A DNA stretch of 64,000 nt from Perna viridis (Eukaryota). The position numbers and the translations under genes are program-made. The stretch is from assembly GCA_037379345.1 (NCBI GenBank), contig CM074521.1, positions 496,001 to 560,000 on the forward strand, read 5' to 3'. Below the pieces are notes generated by a model. The model had not been told where the DNA came from and searched no databases. It saw only the letters and a list, made by a program, of their open reading frames with translations. Positions 3,143 to 46,400 of this stretch are shown one piece after another (within the stretch, counting starts at the first letter, position 1; every line of letters begins with the position of its first letter).

Positions 3143-6100
3143 ATTACAGTCCATCTAACATCACCGTACATGAAACTACGGACACATCACTAAGTATCAG
3201 TTGGATCCAGGCACCTACTTGTTATGAACGTGCTGGAATTTTGATTCGACTCTTTCGACCCGACAACACATCACAGGACTTTAAGGTTCACAAGGACGCC
3301 ACATCATTTGACCTGACAGGACTGTCGGCGACGACACATTACTGGTTTGAACTATACACGAAATATGGCAACGATTCCTTCTCAGAAATAAGCCGATCAC
3401 CTGCAACTTTAGAATTTACTACGACTGAAAAACGTAAGTTTAATTTTCTTCTTCCTGACTTCATATTACAATTAAATAAATTACAAATACTTGTTGAAGA
3501 GGAAAAAAGCAAATTGTAATAGGACTTGCTACGAATACTTCGTGTACACAACCGCATAATTACAAAGTGTATCATTGGCTATAATAACCAAATTATAAGT
3601 AAAACACTTGCATAAGAAAGAAATGTGTATTGAAGTCGCCATGTAATGTCCTGTGCAGAACTTCTCTAATTCTAAGCTGGCGATTAAAAATGCACGTTGA
3701 ATTTTTAATCGCAAGGTGGTGATAAAATTTCTTTGAAAGATTTCTTGCCTTTTTACATTTTCCAAGTTTTCTACATATTTCATTGGGAAAATATTTAAGA
3801 TGCCTAAATCTGTATTTACAGCCTCTGCTATGGAAAGTTATAAATCCCATCTTTATGTGAAATAGAACAGTTTTTCTTAACTAATGTAACGGAATGATAC
3901 ATTTTGACTTCTCTGATGGAATATTTTGCATTATTACGAACTAACTTAAAGACGTTATATGGTATCCATGCGAAACGTTCTACTTCATCCATTGTGTACG
4001 TATAGTATAATTATAGTTATTAGCAAATATTACGAAAGAATGTCTGACGGATTGTCTACAACTACGGTCGGTGGAATATCTGGTGGTAAGTAGAACGTAT
4101 AACCAGTTGGTGTAAGTAAATAGACAATAACAGTGCACTGACTTGACACTGCAACAATGATTTAAAAGAAAACTGATGTTATACGCATGAAAAACGTTGA
4201 ATCGGTGGACATCCTGGCAACTTCAACAAAATGTAAGGTTGTGACATCACATCGGAGAGTGGCTGTATATTATGAAAAAGGATATCCGCCATAAATATGT
4301 TCATGCGTTTCTTTTAACTTTGTTACTTGCTCGCGTGTTCTCTGTATTTTCTGTCTTTGTTAATTGAAGATTGTTCAAATGTTAATCCATGAAATGCATT
4401 TTTTAGCACTGTAGCTTACAGTTTGTACGTATCTTTCTTTGCTTAATGACGTTTCTTTTTATGTAACATCTTTCTTTTACATTTCTACAATTATTAATTT
4501 GTAAAAGACTTCTTCTAACCCTGAAAGTTGTAGATTTCCAATATCTTACTTTATCGGATTCTTTGAGCGTTTAATTTGTGCATCATTTTGATAAATAGAT
4601 ATTTGAAATTAATTTAGAGATAAATCCAAAATCTTTTAGGGATAAAAAAAATCTTCATTTATTGTCATAATTAGACCTATAGCATAATATGCATTCCTTT
4701 AATCAAAGTGACATCATGTTATGAAAGATTAACCGAATATAAACAGTGTCTGTTAATTGTGTCTGGTGTAATTGTTTGATGTATATTTAAGTAGGGCTGT
4801 CTTTAGTGCTATACCGTGTTTTTTTCAGGTTCAGGATCAATAATATAAAGTCTAGAATATTTAATTTATGGAAAAGAATATTCCAATTTCGTTCCTTGTA
4901 ACATAGGTGTCAGACAAGGAGAAAACTTGTCACCTATATTCTTTTCAATACATGTCAATTATTTAGAGGACCTTTTCAAGAATCAAAGTATTCATGGGCT
5001 GAATCTTTTAACTGAAGAAATTGAAACTGAACTCTCGTATTTTTAAAATCTTTTCACTATATTAAATGCTGACGACACGGTATTACTATCAGAATCAGAA
5101 TCCGATCTACAAAAACAACTTGATGCACTTTATGACTATTGCACATTGTGGAAACTTAGTTAATGTTAGCAAAAGTAAATGCAGATTACTCAACTTATTC
5201 CTGGAATGCCAGTTAGATTTTTTTTGACCGAGTTATACGACCTATTCTCTTATACGGTTGGGAAGTATGGGGCATTGAAAATAATACTGTTATAGAAAGG
5301 GTGCATCAAAAATTTTGTAAGACCCTAATGCATGTCAAAAAGTCAACGCCATATTTTACGGTTTACGGGAAACTAGGCAGATATCCACTGGAAATAAAAA
5401 TTAAACTGAGTGTCATTAACTTTTGGTTTAAATCAGGTACTGGAAAATCTGAAAAGCTATCTGCAATTTTATTTCACTTTGTTCTTAAAAAAATATGGCG
5501 ATAGAATTTTCTGGGTAAAAAAGGTTAAATCAATACTGGATGAGTATGGTTTGTCTTTTGTTTGGAACAAACAACACGAACATAATGAATCTTGGATATT
5601 TTTGACAATTAAGCAAAGCCTTCTAGACCAATTTCAACAGTCGTTGAACTCAAAAGTGAAAAATTCACCTGTCTCTGAATTATAGATTGTACAAAGAAGA
5701 TTTGGGAATTGAAAACTATTTCAGGATTTGAGATGACAAAACATATTATTACTCTTTGTAGATTTAGAACCTTGAATAATAACCTTCCCATTGAAAGTGG
5801 GCATTGGCAAAATATGGTGATAATAAAAAAATGTTATTTTTGTAACTCGGGAGATATTGGGGATGAGTTTCATTATTTGTTTAAGTGCACATCGTTTGAT
5901 ATTGACAGAAAAAATACTTCTCGGAGAAAAAAAATTGTTAAAAGACCAAATATTATTAAATTTTAAGCTTTGATGAATAGCTCATCACCTCAACATTTTA
6001 TGTAAACTTATGCGACAAATTACAAAGATGTTGTGTCCAGGGTAGTTCTCTAAATTTATGAATATTGAAATTCATCATGAATGTGACTCAATATTATTCC

Positions 6101-9100: not shown

Positions 9101-12100
9101 ATCAACGTTGTTATTGTGTGAAGTTCCGCGGGTCGGAAACTATTGCATCAACATTTTAGTGTTTGAAGTTGTCAGCATGTAAAGATATACAATTGACATT
9201 GTCAGTGTGTGAAGTTGTCAGCATGTAAAGATATTCAATTAACATTGTCAGTGTGTGAAGTTGTCAGCATGTAAAAATATACAATTAACAGTGTGAGTGT
9301 GTGAAGTTGCCAGCATGTAAAGATATACAATTAACATTGTCAGTGTGTGAAGTTGTCAGCATGTAAAGATATACAATTAACAGTGTGAGTGTGTGAAGTT
9401 GGAGGTCGTAACCAATGCATCAACATCATCGTTGGTGTGCGTTATTGTCCTGGAAAAAAAAACGTAAAACAGAGGAAAGTTTACTTAATGTAAAAGTAAT
9501 GGAAAAAGCGGGATGGAAAAATGTATCGATGGCTTCTTCTGGCTAATGTATTGAATGGTGTTCATTTTCTGTGTTTGGGAATGGATGAGTAGTTCACACT
9601 GAGTTATACGACACGGTTAATGTATCATTCAGTCTACTGAACAAAAATCGTTCAATTAAAACTCTCGAACTGTTTATGAGCAAATTAATAAAACGTATGT
9701 TTGACCAATTCATTTTTTAAACTCAGTGGCGGATTTGTGGTTGCCAATTGTTAGAAAATTTTGTTAATTTCGCGCAAATTTTGAAAAAAAAAGCAAATGA
9801 TGGCCTATAGCGAGAACCCCCCTTTTTACGGGAATCCCACTGGATTCCAATTTCAAAACTTCTGGTTCCGTTCCTGATGTATGTACTTATTTATCAATTG
9901 TCTTATTTATCACTAGAAAATAAATTAAAATTTCTGACATCCATTATTGATTTCAGGTTTCATTATCCTTATCATCGTCATCATTGTCGTTTTGTGTTTC
10001 CTGGGACGAACTGGACGATTACAACCAGCTAAGGCTAGAGTTACGCAGGGTATCCGAACTATACGTAATTCCGTTCGTGCACGGGATAATCGCTCATTGG
10101 GAAGTTATAAAGTGAGTCTTTATTTTTCATTCCAACTACTTTTTCTTGAGAGAGCATAGAGACAAGTTTTTTGTTATATATAATTATATGTATGTTGAAT
10201 GTTTCTGTTTATTATATTATACTCCTACTCAACGAGTGGGCGGTATATTGGATTCAACTCATTTGTCATTCCGCCCGTCCATCCACATTCCGTCGCAATT
10301 ATCTCGGCTACCAATTGATAAACCTATTTCAAATTTGACGTGTGATCTTATATAGATGGGGCATATGTTGTAATATGTGGTTCTTGGTGCTGTCTAATTT
10401 CAACCTTCTATTCCATGGGTCTTATGTCACAAAAATCTCATCTCCCCGTGGATGGAAAGATTTATAAGTTTGTATGTTGCTTCATATAGATGAGGCATAC
10501 GTTGTAAGTGATTTTTGGTGATTTCAATATCACGTACAACTAGGGGTATCCCTAGCACGACAACGCGTGCGACTTCATGTTTTATAATGATATTTCGATT
10601 TATCTCAGTCCTTTTGTTTAAGGAGTGGTTAAGAAGGAAATTATTCTTTTACGATTGCGCATGTACATTTTAAGTTGAGACTCCCTAGTATTTTATTAAT
10701 ACATGTATAACTATGTTTAAACTGTTTTAGAGCAAACTTATTTCTATAGTGGTGATAACAGGTGCGATATTGCAAGTAATAAAGCTTTGGTTAATCTACA
10801 AAAATAGGGATAGTCTTTCCTTGCAACGTTTCATTCCCTTAAAATATTTGAGCTTTCAAGTCAGCGCATCGATGTTAATATTTGACAAAAAACCTCATGT
10901 AAAATCACTGCAGCGCATCGATGTTTTTGTCAGATAAAAATATCATGTGTAACCAAGTCAGTGCATCGATGTTTATATGACAAAAAACCTCATGTGTAAT
11001 CACTGCAGCGCATCGATGTTTTTGTCAGATAAAAACATCATGTGTAACCAAGTCAGTGCATCTATGTTTATATCTGACAAAAAACCTCATGTGTAATCAC
11101 TGCAGCGCATCGATGTTTTTGTCAGATAAAATACCTCATGTGTAATCAAGTCAGCGCATCGATGTTTATGTCAGATAAAAGACCTCATGTGTAACCAAGT
11201 CAGTGCATCGATGTTTATATCTGACAAAAAACCTCATGTGTAATCACTGCAGCGCATCGATGTTTTTGTCAGATAAAAACATCATGTGTAACCAAGTCAG
11301 TGCATCTATGTTTATATCTGACAAAAAACCTCATGTGTAATCACTGCAGCGCATCGATGTTTATGTCAGATAAAAGACCTTCTGTGTTATCAAGTCAGCG
11401 CATCGATGTTTATGTCAGATAAAAAACCTCATGTGTTATCAAGTCAGCGCATTAATGTTTATGTCAGATACTGAAACAGCCCATCAATATATGACATTAG
11501 TGATTATGTTTGAGTGGTCTAGAGAACAGTGGGGGCCTCCATATGGTCAAGTACACAATGTATTTGAATTTTTCACATATATCATTACAGAACCGAGCCT
11601 TCGGTACGGAATATGACGACGACATTTATTTCTATGGACAGATGGATATCAAATTTGATAATTTGGTCATATCGCGAAAGGATATCGCATTAGAATCCCA
11701 GCTGGCAGAGGGAAGATTTGCTACTATATATTTAGCTAAATACTATGGCAATCAAAAGGACTCTCAAAGTGTAGTAGCCAAAATCATGAAGGGTTAGTAA
11801 GATATGACCTAATAATTATTTTCGTTCAGTTATTTTGTAAGAAAATGAATGTTCAGTACCTTTCAAATGTAAACTGAACTCAAATATTGTGTAAGTCTTG
11901 AATGATTTCTTCTAGGGAAATACAAATAATGGACAGGTCAGAACTTAACATTCACAGGGAGACATATTACAAATAATGGACAGGTCAGAACTTAACACTC
12001 ACAGGGAGACATATTACAAATAATGGACAGGTCAGAACTTAACACTCACAGGGAGACATATTACAAATAATGGACAGGTCAGAATTTAACACTGGAGACA

Positions 12101-15100
12101 TATTACAAATAATGGACAGGTCAGAACTTAACACTCACAGGGAGACATGTTGCAAATAATGGACAGGTCAGAACTTAACACTCACAGGGAGACATATTAC
12201 AAATAATGGACAGGTCAGAACTTAACACTGAAGACATATTACAAATAATGGACAGGTCAGAACTTAACACTGGAGACATATTACAAATAATAGACAGGTC
12301 AGAACTTAACACTGGAGACATATTACAAATAATGGACAGGTCAGAACTTAACACTCACAGGGAGACATATTACAAATAATGGACAGGTCAGAACTTAACA
12401 CTGAAGACATATTACAAATAATGGACAGGTCAGAACTTAACACTGGAGACATATTACAAATAATAGACAGGTCAGAACTTAACACTGGAGACATATTACA
12501 AATAATGGACAGGTCAGAACTTAACACTCACAGGGAGACATATTACAAATAATGGACAGGTCAGAACTTAACACTGAAGACATATTACAAATAATGGACA
12601 GGTCAGAACTTAACACTGGGGACATATTACAAATAATGGACAGGTCAGAACTTAACACTGGAGACATATTAGGCTTATTAAGTCTCCTGGGGAGACAGAT
12701 TATAAATACGGGAACGCACTTCGGTCACAAAATTTTAGACAGGTTGAGATAAATTCCGATGTTTTTATGTCATGGTGTTTGGTATGTTTTAAATACTTGT
12801 AACATGGCAAAACAAAGATAAGTCATTGTATCCATAAACATACAACGCCATACATTACTTTTTGGATTCTTCTGCACTTTCAAAGGCAGTGTTTGATCTC
12901 TACATTGAGATGTGTATAATGTCAAACAAGTTTTGTTAAAACATATTAAGCTGGACATTTCAGCTCCTTTCAGCTTCCTCCTTATTTACTCACTAGAGTA
13001 TCAGGCTTCGTCGAGTTTTTTTTTAATATGTGGTCAGCTGTATACTTAGCCATTTGTTTCTCCTTGCTTCCCGGCAAAACCTTACAGATTTGTTTGTACT
13101 TTTAATCTAACAATTCGAAATATGGATAAATATATAAAATTTTGTATTTCCCCCATAGCGGTGTCAAAGAAAGATTCAGCATGCATACAAACTATGGATG
13201 GTTAACCGGTTAACCATCGGGGGTACCGAATATCGAATACCAAAATGCTACTTGGTTAACTGTCGGAGGTACTGAATATTTAATTCCAGAAATGCTATTT
13301 GGTTAACTGTCGGAGGTACGGAATATCGAATACCGAAAAACGCTACTCGGTTAACCGTACAAAATGTACATGTTATGGGTTTGTGCCAATTTACCGTTCA
13401 TTTGCGCAATATATCATCATTTACGTCTGAATTTACGCCTCAGTCCAATATGGCTAGCCTCAGACTAATAACTAAGCCAATATGGAAAAACTTGCGCAAA
13501 AATACTATAATATTATTGTGAGTGCATGTTGCGTGCTTATCAAATCTTGTTTAAATATATATTTAGATGATCAGAATGAAGAAAACGTGATGAAGATGAA
13601 GGCAAAAATCAATTTCTACGTCGACAAAGTTGGGCAACACAAAAATGTTATGGCGTTTATAGGCTCGGTACAGGATGACCAAGCACGTAGGTATTCTAGT
13701 AAGATATGGAAAAGAACATATAAAACATGTTGGTAATTATTACTTTGTTCTTATTCATTTCAAGTAGAGGACGCTTACCCTATCGGTGTAATAATCCCAC
13801 TTTTTTAGGGGAGTCTGGGTTGCTTATTTCTTTATTAGTTTCTTTGTAAATTCAAACAGTCATTTGTGTTATTTATGTTATATGTCTAAGATATTAATTC
13901 GTCAAGTTTAGTTGAAATTCGCTGTGAAAAAATGGCGGGAAATTTTTCCCGCTGTTTTTCAATATATAAATAGTAACAAAAATCTACGTCACAGATGCTT
14001 CAGGAAACATTTGAGTAGCTCTTCGATAGTTTTCTAGATGTATTGAATATATTTTAGGCTAAAATGACTAAGTTGGGAAAATGATGTGCCACCCATCGCC
14101 TGATTCTTACCAAGAATGGTACTTAATCTTCGTCAAAGTTCTCCCCATTATGGACTAGGATCATTGCTTACCGACCGGATACGATATCGTCGATATTGTT
14201 CGAAACCATAATTAACGCATTGTTGTCAGTGTAAATGTTTAAATGAATGACTTCATAATTACTATTGGGCGTTTCCTTCTGATTTTCGGCTTCTCAGTTC
14301 AAGCGAAAAAAAATATTCTCCTGGACATGATCAACGATAATCTATAATAATTATGTCAAAAAAGCATTTCTACCCGAAGTTTTGTATATTGACTGATCGT
14401 TACACATCCTATTCGTTCTTTATTTAGGAGGACCATTTATGGTCCTGGAACACTGCGAGAAGGGAGTCTTAAAGGACTTTCTGGTTTCTAAGAAAGGTAA
14501 CGTCACCATGGACATTGAAGAGATACTGTTTAGGATGTGTTTTGGAATATGTCTTGGTATGGACTACCTATCTGGAAAAAAAGTGAGTTGAAATGTTTTG
14601 GAAGGGACTACCTATCTTGAAAAATCTTGGAAAAGACTATACCTATCTCAGAAAAATGATGAGTTGAGATGTCTTAGAAGGGATTACCTATCTTGAAAAA
14701 AGGTAAGATGGTTTGTATTGGAAGGAACTACCTACCAGGAAATAAAGTGAGTTGAAATGTCTTAGCATGGACTAGGTAGACCACATGTTTTGTTATAAGT
14801 GCATGCAAGATTGATTACCAGTCTGTCCCGAAGGTAAATTAATACATTTTCCGGGATGTGTGTACATTGACAACCAATGTAGCCGAACGGTAAACTGATA
14901 CAGATTTTTTAGGAGGTAAGCATTGTGGACTAGGCTGACCCAACTGAGGTTTGTGTACCTTTGTACAGTTTAGACTAGTCTGGCTTAAATGTGTGCGTAC
15001 ATTGAGGATTGGTCTGGCCTAATAGAACTGTACAGCGAGGACTAGTCTGGCCTAATAGAACTGTACAGCGAGGACTAGTCTGGCCTAATAGAACTGTACA

Positions 15101-18100
15101 GCGAGGACTAGTCTGGTCGAACTATAAATTGATATGATTGTAGGATTCGCCTTTGAGCCTATGAAGGACGGAGCTATTTGTATTAACCTTGGACTTTGTT
15201 GATAATACAATAATGTGTTGTTATATCGCTGGTATGTCGATCAACAGGAGCATGCGAGACTTCCTAAAATACATGCAATTGTGTCTGCGTTCAAAAGTTC
15301 AAAACATTTTTTCCAAATACACAGTCATTTCCTAAATACGTCACATCCAACAAAAAGATGTTTCAATGCATCTACATATATAGGACATCGCTGACACCTT
15401 CTGTTTGCTTTCACTATAGCAATGCTGGTATTTTGTGAAGATATTCTTCGATCCTGAAATCATTCTGTCCTTCCGTTATCCCTCATCGCTTGTATTCTCT
15501 TATAACTTCAATTAAATCGTTTGATGGATTTACGTGTAAGAATCAGCCTTATAAAAACCAGACAGGAGGTGATTCATGCATGTTAACCAAAGTCACTCTC
15601 AGAAGCAGTTACAGACCACATAATCACTCTTAGTTTGTCATTGTTGCACGTTTGAAATAAATGAATAGGAAAAGAAGTTGCGTAAATATATGGGATATGT
15701 AGACCAAAAATGCATGGTTTGTTCAGTGGGGTTTTCTGCATCACGAATGACCTCTGCCATTGAGAGTGTCTGAATTTCATAGATGTATGACAATATTTTC
15801 TCAAATCTAGAGGAGTATGTAACAACCCAGTTCTATTTGTGTTTTTATTGAGCACCTGCTATTTTAAATTTTGGGTTTCCATTAGAGCGTATCATGAATG
15901 TAAGTAGAGTATTAGTCGTACCCATTTCTATCTTCAAGTTCTCCTATACCATCCTGTAGAATTGAACTTTATATGAATTAAAGAAATTTTTTGCCGTTAT
16001 GCACCCATTTTATCTAAAATTAGAATTTTAGGCCTTCATGGGGACATTGTTGTTGATTCATATGCACTTTGTAGGAGGAACAAATGTACTAATTTGTGTC
16101 CAATACTGCTCTGTGAAAGAATGCATTTTGTCCCATCTAATTTTGTTCTCCGCCGCAACGCACAGGATAGACTTTATCTGGCCTCAGTACAAAATTTATG
16201 TCTTGTTTCGTTTTCAGTCTACTTGTATGTTGTTGGAGTATAATGAGGTAACTATTTCGCTGTACTGTGTATAATATTGTTTTTGAGCCAGCTGCTACAT
16301 GCCCTGTGGTATGATGGTTTCCTCGTCGTTCATTGAAGACCCATGGGTGGCCTTGGGCTGACATTTTTCATCCCGGTGTGCTTATTGCATCTTTGACATA
16401 TTCACCATATTCATTCTCGTATATTAGTAATGGTGTGAGGTCGCCCGTCCGTCACAGTTACTGTGTGGCTGAATCTCCGCTGAAACCGGTAAACCTTCTA
16501 TATTTGATAGGATTTATTGTTATGGGGTGTAAATGTGCATACTACGCTGCCATTTCGTGTCGATAATTTATGGTAGATACAAGACTTAATATATTTACTT
16601 ATTTAATGTTAAACATTTCTCAGTCAAAGAATTAAAACGTTGTGGGTCCTTTCCGTGATTTTAAAATTTAGGTTTTTGAAGTGTAAAACAAGCAATACCG
16701 TATGTTTGATTTGAAATATACCGTGAGAGTATATAATGAGACTAAAGCTATCTCCTAAGTATTTGACCTTTCAACACTGATTGGGACATCTTGTGATTGT
16801 TTTGTCAAATGAAAGGCAATAGAAAATTTTCAACTGATAAAACCTAAGTAGTGGTCAAAATCAAAGTCCGTATAACACAGGACAATATCCGGGTAAAAAC
16901 CGGAAACCACGGCTATGATCCTGTCTAGTACATTACGGTACATTATTTCCAGCACATTTCAACTGTATTATTGAAGGGCAGAACATAGCATGACATTGCC
17001 ACATATGATCTATCTTTTTTCTTTGCTGCCTTGTATGTATTTAATGCTCTTGCGTGTCTTATGTGTATTATTGTTATCGTTATACGTTATGCCAGAGCTT
17101 GCCGGGACTATGCAGACTTTTTGTATCGCGCTAGAACTCTGACAAATAGGCTTCTGGAACAGGGTTATGTTGCTACAAGATTGAAGTCATCACTACAGAA
17201 GTTTTATGGTCGTCATCATGAACTCGTGGATCGTTATGGTGTATCCATCAGCACCATGAAAACTGATTTATTCAACGGGTCATAGTTTTCCTTTCCTCGT
17301 TTGTCTACCCCGGACTTGACTTTTTATGAGCAACTCGGCGGGTGTTTCTAGAAAAGCAGAGGACGCTTACCCTACCGGTGCACCTGGTCCATGCTCCCAG
17401 TTTTTAGTGGAGTCCGAGTTGCTCATTTACTTTTGTTACTTTGTATGTATGATTTTAGTTACTTTATGTTCTTTGTTGTGTATGTCTGTTTTCCATGTCT
17501 GGTCTTTGTCCCTGAATTACATTCTTTTGATTACCGCTATAACCTTGGTTCCCGTGATTACTCTTATTTGAACTTGACACACCTTTCCCACAAAATTCAA
17601 GACTTTTTTTTTAAATCATGGCTTGGTTTACATAATTTTTATTAAAGTTAGTTCTTTTTTTTTTTTACTTATTTTTGTTCATTTTCTTTTTCTGTACTGA
17701 TTTTACCGATTTTGACTGGTTGCAAGTTTATGCTGCTCATTTATGTTCAAATCTTTATTTATAATCGGTACTTGTAAAACATTACAATACAAGTTCTAAT
17801 TAGCTTTTAAAACCAGATTTGAACATAAATGAGCAGCATAAATTTGCGACCAGTCAAAATCGGTAAAATCAGTACAGAAAAAGAAAATGAACAAAAATAA
17901 GTAAAAAAAAAGAACTAACTTTAATAAAAATTATGTAAACCAAGCCATGATTTAAAAAAAAAGTCTTGAATTTTGTGGGAAAGGTGCGTCAAGTTCAAGT
18001 TGAAATAACGTTTTAAGATTTTAATTTGACTTGGTTATTGTCCCGGAAACCTTTCTTGAACCTTTATATAAGTTTATACAATTTTAGTGCATTATGAAGT

Positions 18101-20461
18101 TTCTCATCTTTCTGGCAGGTTGTACACAGACGGTTGGCTGCCAGGAACATCTTACTAAACCACCTGTATGAACCAAAAATCACTGGATTTGGGCCGGATC
18201 CAGATCAAGAGGTGGAAGGGGAGGTAACAAACTTTGATTATTATTATTGTTTGATTATTCATTCACCGAAACTGATTTTAATGCCATTCTAGTGTTATTT
18301 GATTCATTTAATATCGTTTAATGGTACGTGTAACAAATTCGTATAAAATAGTTATGAAGTTAATTTTCTCTTTCATTTAGACAATTTTTCTAAGACTATA
18401 GGTGGGTTAACTTGGAAAACTTTTAAAAAAATATATACAATGATTAAATCCAGATTTTCACTTTCAAACTGTTGAGTATAATTGATTATGTTCATGATTT
18501 GTTTATAAGGAAAGGATTCCGTTGAAATGGATGGCTCCTGAGTGTCACAAGTCAACCAAGGGTGCTACAGAACTTAGTGATGTCTTCTCGTATGGTGTTG
18601 TAATGTGGGAAATATTCTCATTAGGTACATTGTGTTTAATGAATGCTTTGACTTCACTTTCCGCTTTTACTATCATCTACAATGAAGCCAATCGAGACTA
18701 CTCGGCCATTTCCGCTATTCTTAAATCAACTTTGTATACTGAAAGTATAATGTTTTGCGAGTCAAAAATTCCATCCACCAGATAGCACTTTAAATTTTAG
18801 TGAAATATTATTAGAAATAAATAACATAACTCTTCCAAGAATTTTGGCGCGAAGAGAGGAGCGAGCTACGAAAAAGTGTTTAATTATTTTCTACTTCACA
18901 TTTGACGTAGCAAATCAAAGTGCATTAGACTCATCTGTACCCTTTCATTTAGTATTGAATGCTACATGTAAGTCTTATATGAAAGTTGAAATGGGTCCTC
19001 GATTCATTCGACCATTCATTTCTGTATATCAGAGTTTTGATGTCCTGTATGATTATCAGTCTGCGCTATTTATAGAAGAATAAATGTTCACTTATTTGTA
19101 CTTAAGATAGATATAGAAAGTAAAAAGGCAGCGACTTTCGTTATCACTTTGGTCTTATTTTCAATTCTGTTTTTTTTTTTTTCAACACTACATTTTAGGC
19201 GATACACCATACCCTGGGATCCAGAGCAGAGATGTTTTCTCAAAACAGAAACAAGGATATAAGATGAAGAAACCAGAACTATGCGATGATCAGTAAGTAA
19301 ATGGGTTCAGATAGAGTGTTCAATCTATTCTAAATATTTCAAACAGATAGGCCATTTAAGCCCGATGGCCAATCATATTCATAATAGTTTTTCATATTGA
19401 CAGGTTTTAGTTACGTGATTGTCCAAAGGTTAAGGTTCAGCATCACTTTTAGACAAATTAAACTCAATTAAATACTACGCTGTAGAAGAAGATGTGCACC
19501 TGCGAATTTAATGTACACCTATAGACACGGTAATTAAAATAAAATTCCTTTTCTGCTTTAAAATATTTTAATCCTATCTCGAATTTGCTGTACATAATTT
19601 GCTATTCTGCAGATGGTGCAAAAATAAATTAAGTATATTTCATGGTTTGAGATGTTCCGGTTCCCCACACGTCAAACGTGAACAGTAGAACCTAGATCTC
19701 GGTGATGGCTTTGGCTTCCTATTTCGATCGTTTTGGTTTTTACTACTTCTAAAATCTTGAATACAATTTATTTTGGGATTAACATTTTCCTACATTGTAT
19801 ATATTTGATTCAAATGCTTCTAATAAGTGGGTTTTCTTTGAAGCACATGTACAGCATGTCGAAATTTTCAATACATGTATATATGATTGGTATTTCTTTT
19901 AAATTCAAATTGGTGTGCTTGTCAAAGATTCTTTCTAGTAAAGTCGATGGACATGTTCAATAAACACATCCGCAATGTATGGCTTGGGTAGAACAAAATC
20001 ATTTTCCACCCGGAAGTGTTTATTGTGTATGCTCTATGCAGTTAGCACGAAAGACGATTAATTTAAATTATAAATAAGTGGATGTATCAAGAGAAATTCA
20101 TTCAGGTGTTTGTTCATTTTGTAATCATCTGTATTCGAAGCAAAAGTAAGTTCAGTTTTGATTTAATTGATTTTTCATAAAATTAATGTAACTTTCCCTT
20201 ATCTTGGGGATCCATTTTATTTTTTTAGATACACAGGTTTGTAGACAGAGGGAAATTGAGTCGATTTGACGAAAGATTATTATGAGCCTTAATGCGCTGT
20301 AAAATTTTAATTATTTTAGATTTTACAAGATAATGTTGAACTGTTGGCACTACCATCCTTCTAAGCGAAACGGATTCGCCCAAATCAAAGACGATCTGAG
20401 TACAATGTTTACAGAGGCTCCTGGTGATGATTACTACTACAGGTCTAATGAACTAGAATAG
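3143..20461 (+). CDS. FN3-domain single-pass receptor tyrosine kinase-like protein, predicted pseudokinase, 5'-partial. Exons: 3143-3433, 4017-4085, 9957-10111, 11591-11792, 13567-13686, 14428-14582, 18119-18223, 18510-18624, 19199-19292, 20320-20461
   Basis: All nine introns are GT-AG with matching phases (1448 nt = 2 + 482 codons including TAG). FN3 domain ([18 protein letters not shown]...[15 protein letters not shown]), TM segment ([22 protein letters not shown]), kinase motifs [82 protein letters not shown]. Upstream exons lie outside the window. Confidence 0.9.
4840..6045 (+). mobile_element. Degenerate non-LTR retrotransposon (LINE, RTE-X-like) RT/C-terminal fragment
   Basis: Frameshifted pieces: [69 protein letters not shown], and a C-terminal [19 protein letters not shown] zinc-knuckle motif. 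Clade assignment is inference. Confidence 0.8.
6146..6760 (-). mobile_element. Relic of a Ulp1-like cysteine protease + PHD finger ORF of DNA-transposon type
   Basis: Minus strand reads [55 protein letters not shown], then a PHD-like C...VGCD...C.VWKH..C. Frameshifted. Confidence 0.6.
7130..8075 (+). mobile_element. 3' end of a second LINE (RTE-X-like) with microsatellite tail
   Basis: [43 protein letters not shown] (CCHC motif), followed by AATAAA and a (GAATCT)n tail at about 8048-8074. Confidence 0.75.
9163..9400. repeat. Minisatellite, ~46-bp unit, ~5 copies
   Basis: Unit gtgtgaagttgtcagcatgtaaagatatacaattaacattgtcagt. Confidence 0.9.
10857..11472. repeat. Minisatellite, ~46-47-bp units in two loop-inverted variants
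   Basis: Units cagcgcatcgatgtttttGTCAGATaaaaacatcatgtg... and cagtgcatctatgtttatATCTGACaaaaaacctcatgtg... Confidence 0.9.
11915..12670. repeat. Minisatellite with interspersed 42-bp and 47-bp units
   Basis: ggagacatattacaaataatggacaggtcagaacttaacact(cacag); explains the spurious ORF 12552-12752. Confidence 0.95.
13205..13358. repeat. Short tandem repeat, ~47-bp unit x3
   Basis: ggttaactgtcggaggtac(c/t/g)gaatatcgaatacc..aaatgctac.t repeated. Confidence 0.75.
14548..14775. repeat. Degenerate ~43-bp tandem repeat overlapping the 3' end and splice donor of kinase exon 14428-14582
   Basis: atgtcttggtatggactacctatctggaaaaaaagtgagttgaa recurs about five times in degenerate form in the intron. Confidence 0.75.
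15005..15118. repeat. Tandem repeat, ~33-bp unit x3.5
   Basis: gaggactagtctggcctaatagaactgtacagc repeated. Confidence 0.9.
17080..17565 (+). mobile_element. Penelope-like retroelement 3' fragment (same family as 55697-57170)
   Basis: Encodes [52 protein letters not shown], then the family 3' UTR ending ggttcccgtgattactct. Confidence 0.85.
17568..17998. mobile_element. Foldback/MITE-like palindrome, ~185-bp near-perfect arms, 60-bp spacer
   Basis: 17568-17754 (ttgaacttgacac...gttcaaatct) is the reverse complement of 17815-17998 (agatttgaac...gtcaagttcaa). Confidence 0.9.
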
Positions 20462-43441: not shown

Positions 43442-46400
43442 TTAAGACACGACGGTTGGTTCCTGGTCATCCACTACTGCTAGGAACCCTTTATCTGGTA
43501 TATACTCTGCCAAGGGGTACCAGAAAAAATTAAATCCAACAGAAACGGCCTCATTAACAGATCTATAGATAATATCCTCATCATCCTCGTTAATCATTGC
43601 CATGACATCTAATTGACGATTTAATGTTTTGATGTTCTTCAGTCTGAGCTGTGGGGATGATGATCCTGCACCGTCAACTAATACACCTGAAACCTCCACA
43701 GAATCATCCACCTGTAATGCTGCCATGGTGTCTTTAAAGCTGTTAGCAGCTGTGATACCTACAGGAACTGTTATGTCTCCAGCTTCCATATCAACTGACA
43801 GAGAGAAAGAATGAGTATCATGTCTGTGGAGATGACATTCATGGCCTAAAGATGTCATAAGAGTGCAGACTTCTTTATCTTTTGTTGATTTCTCATCACT
43901 GGAACAATCACCATATTCCTCACCATAAGAACATCTCAGATAATTAGCAATAAATCCAGGCATTCCCTTTAGTAATGGCTCCACACTGTTCTCAATTTTG
44001 GTGATTTTGGCTTTTTTGAATACACCAGTCCATGTCACACTGGATCCAGACAGAGATACGCAAGCAAGTTGGTTTGGGACAGTATTGGCATCAGATCCAA
44101 CACACAGATTTTGGTATTCATCCCATGTCACTACAGTCTTAGATGGTTTTTTTGTTGATGGAAGCTGGACGAATATCATTGGAAGTAAAGCCAGGACAGC
44201 AAATACTCCCATGACAATCTTCTTTGTTGTGCCAAGCTTTTTGTCAGTTTTCTTGCCAAACAGAGTTTTGGTTTGCGACAGCAGTAAAGCTAGACCACCA
44301 AGCAGTAAGGTTACAATCAGTTTACCAAATATGGCTGTCATCAATAAACGGTAAACAATGTAAACAAATCCTAGCATTATGAAAATAATTGCCAGGGGAA
44401 TCAGCATGGGTAGGAAAAAGTATCCAACAGTAGATCTGATCAGGCCTCTCCATGTTGTGAACGGGAAAACAGATAGCATCAGATGCCACCAGAAATAACA
44501 AACTAGGTGTGGCACTAATACTTGGTATGTTCCCTTCCACGATCCCTTTGCTGCCATGAAGATAAACATTACAGGGACAATGATATAACAAAGAGTTGGT
44601 AATCCTATGTTTATTTGGAATCCAGCTCCAACTTCTATGGAAATACCAGCACCAAGAGCCATCTGGACTGCTGAAGTTACATATGGAATCTTTGGAAAAT
44701 TGTGCAAAAATGTTGGTAATGAAGCAACCAGGTTTAAGATGACAGCAATTATCAGCAACATATCATGTCTATCACTAAGTGCAGTAAAACAAACTCCTGC
44801 CAGGGCCATACACAGTATACAGAACTCAGAACAGGGGATGTACATCTTATTAGCCAGGGAAAAGCTTACCACAGCTAATGGCAGGGCTCCAAAGAAAACA
44901 AGATATGGTGTTAGTGAATTCCAGGAGTACTGTGACCGAGTTTCATTAACATCCACACCGACATCATAGGTTTTTAGTACACTAGCAAGAGCAGCTGCAT
45001 CTCTCATTTTCTTCTTTTTATAGAACATCTGCAATGTGGCGACAATCATCACCATGACACTGATGTAAAACACTAACAAAGGTACAATCAACAGAATCAT
45101 TGGTGTTGTAATGAAGTTATACATGTAGAACAGTACCAGTAAATAAATCTGATTGGTTGGAATAAGAGAGGTAACCCAATCCATACCTTCTTTAGACACA
45201 GTCTCCAGTCCTTGTTCAAACAATGCTTGAAAAGTCTCCTTAGGGTATCTGTATATCTAGAAAATAGTAATGTATAAGTAAAGAAACTCTGTGGAAAAAG
45301 AGAGATATCAAATATTGTAAAAGTTAACATTGTCAGGCAAATCAATTACATTTTAAAATAAAAGACAATGATTTGCATAGAAGCATAGGACCGAACATGC
45401 TTGTTGTATAACAGAAAAGCACAGCACCAAACATGCTTATTGTATAACAGAAAAGCACAGGACCAAACATGCTAATTGTATAACAGAAAAGCACAGGACC
45501 AAATATGCTAATTGTATAACAGAAAAGCATAGGACCAAACATGCTAATTGTATTAGAGAGAAGCATAGGACCAAACCTGCTATATGTATAACAGAAAAGC
45601 ATAGGACCAAACATGCCAATTGTATAACAGAAAAGCAGAAGACCAAACCTCCTAAAATGTTTAACTAAAGGCAGTGTATGAAGTTACATATCTTCACTGG
45701 TAGAAAAAAATTTGGACTGCCTGTCATTACAAAGTTAAAAGTCACTTTTCAACATCCATAAGACAACCTTCACATACTGACTATTCTTTTCTCATTAGTT
45801 TTATTTTCTCCAAGAAATGGCAATTACCTTGGTAACGATGCCAGCACTTTTATACTCCAATGAATGTTCCTCTGTTTCTCCTGATGTTAGAGTTATGTTC
45901 CCTTGAATTTTCTTGGAAAGAACTTTCACAAACTCTGTTTCATTTATAGTGTCACCAATCTTCTTCCCTGAAAAAAAAAACAGCTGGGTGAATGCACAGT
46001 TGAGTACTTAGTGTATTAGAGGTGGCTAAAATGCTTCACAGGGTGTAGTTTGATAAAACAGAAGAGGTCATACCCTGAACAGTTGGGAATCGCGTGTGAG
46101 CATTCAAACTTGATATAGCTCTGTAGTTCTGATTGCAATGTTTGACAAAGATTTGACCAAAGATAGAAAAGTAGTCAAAGAACTGTTGAATTTGCAATAA
46201 GACATAAGAGATAAGTAACTTTTTAATGACCTTCAGACCCCTTCTTGGCACTTTATTCCAAAAAGAAAAATCATGTCCTAACCTTTCATTCCGTCAAAAC
46301 ATTCTGCGGTATAAAACCAATACAATTTTATTGATCCATACACTTAAAAAAATCAATTTAATACTAAGAAATCAGAAATATGTTGATTTTTGGCCTCTTT

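Follow-up and report, generated by a model that had tools for sequence, protein, structure and literature searches.

An intact receptor tyrosine pseudokinase gene in a tandem array of the mussel Perna viridis

Can a receptor that has lost every acidic residue of its kinase active site still be encoded by a maintained gene? The question is raised by a locus of the mussel Perna viridis (assembly GCA_037379345.1), where a 64,000-nucleotide stretch of contig CM074521.1, hereafter the window (C11:496001-560000, forward strand, C11 being this contig), was originally predicted from its letters alone to hold an intact tyrosine pseudokinase with an FN3-type ectodomain at 11591..20461. Positions are those of the window unless a contig is named; sources cited by PMC number were available in part, and what we say of them extends to those parts. 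The reading of a maintained, catalytically dead receptor is supported by the sequence evidence below, and from the same evidence we infer the roles proposed with it, phosphorylation in trans and a co-receptor function. On balance, we favor the view that the gene encodes an intact single-pass receptor, likely a dead scaffold that would be phosphorylated by another tyrosine kinase and recruit SH2 proteins.

The seven exons first described splice into an open frame of 310 codons plus stop, with AG acceptors in all seven and GT at all six internal donors, and this intact frame makes up the whole cytoplasmic region. As the extent of a receptor the range 11591..20461 is too short, holding the cytoplasmic part only, but the FN3 domain does exist in an upstream exon (3143-3433), followed by a transmembrane (TM) exon (9957-10111). 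The full gene comprises 22 exons in a single open frame (C11:455,721-516,461), 12 of them upstream of the window, and starts about 40 kb outside it. The predicted product of 1255 amino acids runs from signal peptide to stop in the order signal peptide, Cys-rich hairpin, two EGF domains, predicted beta-sandwich/FN3-like array, FN3, TM helix and pseudokinase, and its C-terminus lies about 25 residues beyond the kinase domain. Compared along its whole length with Mytilus edulis protein P0004 it shows 62% identity, and the closest named proteins among the matches listed are from Mytilus (69-76% identity). The exons inside the window are these:

Exon 13 of 22, 3143..3433, plus strand: membrane-proximal FN3 domain (Pfam fn3, E=1e-7), bounded by AG and GT; homologous exon in 4/4 tandem copies.
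Exon 14, 4017..4085, plus strand: linker and first TM residues; the 3' part aligns with linker exons of paralogues.
Exon 15, 9957..10111, plus strand: TM helix and basic juxtamembrane stretch; one RNA-type contig spans exactly 9956-10111.
Exon 16, 11591..11792, plus strand: acidic juxtamembrane Tyr pair with YxxM (11633-11644), Gly loop AEGRFA (11705-11722), beta3 Lys (11780-11782).
Exon 17, 13567..13686, plus strand: alphaC helix, with Glu replaced by Lys at 13605-13607 (VEGFR alignment).
Exon 18, 14428..14582, plus strand: hinge, alphaD and alphaE, without a kinase insert (Pfam PK_Tyr_Ser-Thr, E=1.7e-6).
Exon 19, 18119..18223, plus strand: catalytic loop HRRLAARN (Arg codon CGG, 18131-18133), GFGP (18185-18196, the GFG at 18185-18193), short acidic activation loop.
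Exon 20, 18510..18624, plus strand: P+1 loop, APE and alphaF; contigs show both joints.
Exon 21, 19199..19292, plus strand: alphaG to alphaH; joints in 4/4 runs.
Exon 22, 20320..20461, plus strand: alphaH, alphaI and acidic tail with YYY (20432-20440), stop; joint in 4/4 runs.

The acceptor of exon 14 is uncertain, 4017 being the best-scoring in-frame candidate with no read joint seen; in two paralogues the linker exon is 45 nucleotides long. Transcript-type contigs show the predicted joints and carry the substitutions. The catalytic exon (18119-18221) has no differences in three of three RNA-type runs and one DNA-type run; RNA-type contigs join 18223 to 18510 at GT..AG with the flanking introns empty, and the DNA-type run, possibly the source of the assembly, reads through the introns. 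The joints 18624>19199 and 19292>20320 appear in all four runs, from four studies, and the loose letters of contigs ahead of 18119 are the end of exon 18. The RNA type of the runs is a guess, none being recorded as RNA; expression is deduced from the GT..AG joints and empty introns, and the contigs carry no information on its level. Other contigs differ from the catalytic exon at 11 and 13 positions, which indicates that paralogues are transcribed as well. Just upstream of the catalytic exon lies a long inverted repeat (17568-17998) with two arm pairs of about 110 nucleotides, 94% complementary.

The cytoplasmic domain matches Pfam PF07714. An AlphaFold2 model of a family member, compared by Foldseek, has an FGFR-like kinase fold (predicted local distance difference test, pLDDT, 86), and the closest solved structures to the kinase domain are VEGFR and FGFR kinases; in the ESM Atlas the kinase domain falls in generic tyrosine kinase clusters and the ectodomain in unnamed ones. 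In this domain all three acidic catalytic residues are replaced: the alphaC Glu by Lys, the Asp of HRD by Arg, giving HRR, and the Asp of DFG by Gly, giving GFG. With both Asp residues gone, such a domain has neither its catalytic base nor its Mg2+ site. These substitutions, as originally predicted, are read both in the assembly and in the spliced contigs. The Gly loop is degraded, and the change at the alphaC Glu position is now refined to a Lys. Also as first described, the activation segment is short, acidic and free of Tyr, the beta3 Lys and the C-lobe are conserved, and Tyr clusters stand at both ends of the cytoplasmic region, juxtamembrane and in the tail; the catalytic Asn and hinge Glu are kept too. 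By its predicted architecture (signal peptide, ectodomain, one TM helix, tyrosine kinase fold) and the loss of both Asp residues, the product has the makeup of a receptor tyrosine pseudokinase and is predicted to be inactive.

The pattern is fixed in a family whose membership was defined independently of the motif, by an ectodomain BLAST match (E<1e-10) together with a kinase domain. The stored proteins number 304; the ectodomain is present in 206 of them, and 174 of these have a kinase domain too; our counts refer to 169, after removal of five hemichordate rows (the fused extra kinase domain of P0298 was also dropped), denominators are the members having a residue in the given alignment column, and the set is biased by its pseudokinase queries and by mussel redundancy. 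The HRD Asp position holds Arg in 141 members, Lys in 18, His in 7, Ser in 1 and Asp in none (n=167). At the DFG Asp, Gly is found in 165/166 and Asp in 0/166, with Pro after GFG in 165/166; at the alphaC Glu, Lys is found in 166/167. Members retain the central Gly as well as the beta3 Lys (165/166), the hinge Glu (161/164) and the catalytic Asn (166/167), and 34 representatives with less than 60% identity show the same substitutions. Conservation extends to the first juxtamembrane Tyr (159/165) and the middle tail Tyr (143/144); only 3/163 have a Tyr in the activation segment. A juxtamembrane YxxM is present in 102/158 family proteins and in 1/87 active-kinase controls. The sole Asp-bearing domain, in P0298, was considered as an active sister and excluded, being a separate kinase fused at the N-terminus. 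Species with a named member include many bivalves, gastropods, one chiton (Liolophura) and one annelid (Owenia), with no cephalopod, arthropod or chordate named among the matches listed. The suspected little-characterised invertebrate family is broad and unnamed, and orthologues retain HRR/GFG. Database labels call its members FGFR, Tie, FER, CSK, Kit or uncharacterized (>150 proteins).

Selection on this gene can be read from its own neighborhood. Four complete copies stand head to tail on C11 (at about 226-262, 285-343, 355-395 and 456-516 kb), a further copy lies on C1 at 71.6 Mb, and all five carry HRRLAARN and xGFGP. The ratio of nonsynonymous to synonymous substitution rates (dN/dS, or omega), calculated by the method of Nei and Gojobori for the cytoplasmic region, is 0.063-0.090 in six of six paralogue pairs (upper 95% bound <=0.13; dS 0.7-1.2), as the expectation of a value below 1 required, and the codons of the replaced Lys, Arg and Gly vary only synonymously among paralogues. 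The cytoplasmic region is among the most conserved (84-85% identity, omega 0.07-0.09), and the comparison of sequences shows the gene to be under purifying selection. The N-terminal hairpin is the least conserved region (61-70% identity, omega 0.20-0.28). At such values diversifying selection at the N-terminal tip is not shown, and the hairpin variation is, on sequence comparison, relaxed constraint, not proof of diversification.

The array has its irregularities. A broken fifth ectodomain copy with stop codons lies at C11:~649-670 kb, and the sequence as far as 690 kb showed no kinase exons. In copy B, three residues of the Gly loop are deleted in frame (C11:339,044-339,236), the cytoplasmic exons of this copy being otherwise intact. 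In copy A (C11:247.6-248.2 kb), several degenerate tandem repeats of the 45-nucleotide linker exon follow downstream of it, some with splice sites, and these are possible alternative micro-exons.

How might such a receptor work? All three replaced positions are fixed, two of them to basic residues, and the adenine-side residues are retained. In human MLKL, cation-free ATP binding relies on the Lys of the HGK motif, and in STRADalpha an Arg and a His stand in for the cation (PMC4718504); both share with the mussel family a Gly at the DFG Asp and a basic pocket residue, but they are cytoplasmic and outside the RTK (receptor tyrosine kinase) group, and serve as a model for the pocket alone. Because they bind ATP without cations by way of basic residues, it is reasonable to expect that the mussel pocket probably binds nucleotide without metal. 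Output would most likely pass through tyrosines outside the kinase fold, since the juxtamembrane Tyr, YxxM and tail Tyr are conserved and an activation-loop Tyr is rare. In the scheme we propose, ligand or cell contact would engage the EGF/beta-sandwich/FN3-like ectodomain; an active FGFR/Ret/Tie-like receptor or a cytoplasmic Src-type kinase would phosphorylate the DDDIYxYGxM and DDYYY sites; phosphorylated YxxM would recruit PI3K p85; and the charge-reversed pocket would probably bind metal-free ATP in the way of MLKL and STRADalpha, stabilizing a docking conformation. There are precedents for parts of this. The YxxM sites of HER3 recruit p85 (PMC3248195), and FLOR-1 of the KIN-16 family in Caenorhabditis elegans, likewise an invertebrate receptor pseudokinase, is likely a scaffold phosphorylated downstream of OLD-1, an active kinase (PMC10523662). 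FLOR-1 differs in being nematode-specific, with the motif HRALALRS and a known active paralogue, OLD-1, and offers a functional analogy only.

Several observations weigh against this scaffold reading. YxxM is absent in 56/158 members and present in only 16/34 diverse representatives; the motif is also compatible with a YxxPhi endocytic signal. The trans-phosphorylating kinase is here only postulated from sequence, unlike the partners of HER3 or FLOR-1, and no active kinase was found in the 384 kb surrounding the cluster. Hemichordate relatives (Ptychodera, Glandiceps) have the same ectodomain core and a dead kinase with HRK and SF[AS], but they lack the juxtamembrane motif and last FN3, and they keep the alphaC Glu, so the charge reversal is not universal. 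Lastly, no active kinase with this ectodomain occurs among the 174 stored ectodomain-plus-kinase proteins. If it were a cluster representative, such a receptor should have ranked in an exhaustive full-length search, because the matches there reach down to 163 bits and include ectodomain-only and ordinary kinase proteins. Six more distant genomic ectodomain loci, from 27 matches overall, showed no match to a kinase in the stretches that were fetched (one partly readable), and in a metagenome scan of 80 loci, 64 of 64 parsed catalytic motifs keep Asp and none match the ectodomain.

An unlikely alternative, compatible with a scaffold, is that the dead domain works as an allosteric regulator, docking on an active kinase and switching it in the manner of the HER3 activator or STRADalpha, its own tyrosines being secondary. 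The whole fold is strongly constrained, with the alphaC face M-x-A-K-I-N-F near-invariant and the GFGP turn kept, which would exceed the needs of a mere Tyr scaffold, and the six kinase introns coincide with those of an active Ig-type RTK that this genome also encodes; the conserved Tyr sites, however, favor docking, and an active paralogue sharing this ectodomain did not turn up.

The shared introns bear on origin as well. All six match in position and phase those of the active Ig-domain RTK at C5:4.547-4.552 Mb (locus C5:4.53-4.552 Mb). Three other active kinases that were fetched have no intron at the alphaF site, and in a fourth the kinase domain is intronless; an intronless kinase domain with HRD and DFG intact, which we take to be ROR-like, lies at C1:37,194,060-37,194,920. 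In a tree of 59 rows, with 20 of 58 stored active domains included, 30 protostome-type rows form one clade (Shimodaira-Hasegawa-like approximate likelihood ratio test, SH-aLRT, 95) and four hemichordate rows another (99), and the family sits in a weak polytomy (support 81) with the intron-matched Ig RTK and VEGFR. Constraining protostome-type and hemichordate forms together gave a likelihood 8.7 above the free quick search (approximately unbiased test, p-AU 0.72), and with a Cad96Ca-like row added after the tree was viewed, 9.9 higher (p 0.76). On these alignments a single origin of the two is not rejected and not shown. Among active RTKs of the Tie, FGFR, Ret, VEGFR and Cad96Ca types, VEGFR and FGFR provide the closest solved folds, an Ig-type RTK of this genome shares the introns, and the EGF and FN3 parts recall Tie; against them the mussel receptor is catalytically dead by sequence and has neither a kinase insert nor an activation-loop Tyr, and where Tie has Ig-EGF-Ig-FN3x3 over an active kinase, the mussel family has a predicted hairpin-EGF2-sandwich-FN3-like x4 over a dead one. 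We offer only as a tentative picture, possible yet less likely than not, that this is a pseudokinase-only receptor family whose single origin would lie in an FGFR/Ret/Tie-like kinase of the bilaterian ancestor, and which would have become in lophotrochozoans a charge-reversed, metal-free nucleotide or phospho-ligand switch, with PI3K-wired tandem sensors of variable tip.

The ectodomain was modelled by AlphaFold2 in a gastropod relative, P0152 (34% identical to P0004; pLDDT 87), as a long N-terminal beta-hairpin and two EGF domains, followed by one large beta-sandwich and some four smaller units resembling FN3. Of these units, the final one matches FN3 (Z 14.5, root-mean-square deviation, rmsd, 2.9, 95 residues); a four-domain fibronectin fragment could be aligned to residues 346-859, but the geometry overall was poor (rmsd 18). 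Foldseek gave no match to the whole ectodomain (best TMq 0.23), residues 22-345 being barely covered, and Pfam recognizes only EGF (weakly) and the last FN3, no family scoring above cut-off in the core of about 600 amino acids. The first description as FN3-type thus applies to the membrane-proximal domain, but the ectodomain is far larger than a single FN3. The hairpin may be EMI-like, although no database match says so. A VWA domain is present in some of the members from mussels and Owenia; in Mytilus P0016-P0020, P0026 and P0029 the pseudokinase lies under a shorter EGF-VWA-EGF ectodomain without the sandwich array, a pairing from which we deduce that ectodomains are swapped within the family.

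Carriers of the ectodomain without a kinase also exist, Lingula being one. At C11:34.96-35.00 Mb, three tandem EGF-sandwich-FN3 cassettes are followed by a TM helix and short tail, and no match to a kinase occurs within 30 kb; a decoy or co-receptor is possible from this layout. On contig C9, giant multi-exon proteins (L145-L146, L163-L164, L167-L168, L178-L179) have this module at their start and numerous beta-rich repeats after it. That contig has 12 ectodomain matches, several clustered at 22.2-22.7 Mb, and three sampled exons were without a Pfam match. Both the triple-cassette gene and the C9 proteins speak for a still less probable alternative, an adhesion, uptake or decoy receptor whose ectodomain would bind ligands or particles, with YGxM as a sorting signal and the pseudokinase as a structural trafficking module. 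The Met at +3 is Val or Ile in some members, in keeping with this, but it leaves the fixed basic pocket residues and the acidic YYY tail unexplained.

That the domain is an atypical active kinase, in which the new Lys and Arg substitute for Mg2+ and allow a low, metal-independent phosphotransfer, we judge very improbable. CASK is active without cations (PMC4718504), and the beta3 Lys, catalytic Asn, hinge Glu and central Gly are retained at the frequencies given above; the catalytic base, however, is wholly missing (0/167 Asp), the activation loop has no Tyr, and MLKL and STRADalpha, with similar losses, are classed as inactive (PMC4718504). An assembly error, private decay or young pseudogene, which the broken fifth copy and the Gly-loop deletion in copy B would suit as signs of array turnover, is rejected as next to impossible, since reads and contigs agree with the assembly, the 1255-residue frame is open, dN/dS is below 0.1 and the same residues are fixed family-wide across Mollusca.

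Taking the gene, then, as a likely dead scaffold, how does it compare with known receptor pseudokinases? PTK7, ROR1/2, RYK and STYK1 are, like this family, single-pass proteins with a dead tyrosine kinase and no active paralogue of the same ectodomain, and STYK1 shares a basic alphaC residue (Arg) and a Gly at the DFG Asp (GLG); all of them, however, keep the catalytic-loop Asp, where the mussel family has Arg, Lys or His (PMC13259870). Their ectodomains include the seven Ig domains of PTK7 and the 22-residue stub of STYK1 (PMC13259870); Pfam matched no Ig array, CRD/Kringle or WIF domain in ten family proteins, only EGF, fn3 and in some VWA. EphA10, EphB6 and HER3 also lack the HRD Asp (Gly, Ser and Asn), and EphA10 has GFG (PMC13259870), but these receptors have active paralogues, and EphA10 and EphB6 lose the beta3 Lys that the mussel family keeps; no ephrin-binding, SAM, L or furin domain was matched in the same ten proteins. 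The claim of a distinct substitution pattern thus stands for the combination, none of the eight human receptor pseudokinases treated in PMC13259870 joining alphaC Lys, catalytic-loop Arg, GFG and an intact beta3 Lys, but not for GFG alone, which EphA10 shares. Insect Wsck is also an invertebrate receptor with FN3, TM and a kinase without the catalytic Asp (PMC2754085), and differs in its WSC domain and length of about 800 amino acids (PMC2754085, PMC11908783), the kinase domains being compared by description only. No WSC domain was matched in 22 family proteins or fragments, and no protein named Wsck stands among the best 120 matches listed, molluscs filling the rows of the profile search.

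No such family is described in the tyrosine kinase section of the oyster kinome paper, in part 4 of 5 of its S1 table (PMC4883820) or in the available text of PMC8662651 and PMC11589774, the latter leaving two RTKs unassigned. We found no description of it in the literature covered, which takes in few subscription papers, and unseen supplements could list its genes. The best reading of these comparisons is a new family of an already known kind, the pseudokinase-only receptor. If true, an ancient invertebrate family would join the few receptor tyrosine pseudokinases now listed, and mollusc kinome counts and pathway inferences would be in error where they take its >150 members with such labels for active kinases. 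A fixed basic pocket and a conserved YxxM offer directly testable biochemistry, and tandem arrays with a variable tip are a candidate surface-sensing system in farmed bivalves.

Elsewhere in the window, positions 1-2607, in the intron before the FN3 exon, form a near-exact tandem duplication whose period is 1340 bases, and intronic minisatellite arrays lie at 9150-9401, 10856-11470 and 11921-12671, with periods of 46, 49 and 42. On the minus strand, 43442-45256 is an open frame of 603 amino acids with Wolframin cysteine-rich and C-terminal OB domains; by its predicted domains it is the large last exon of a WFS1-like gene, placed tail to tail with the receptor gene.
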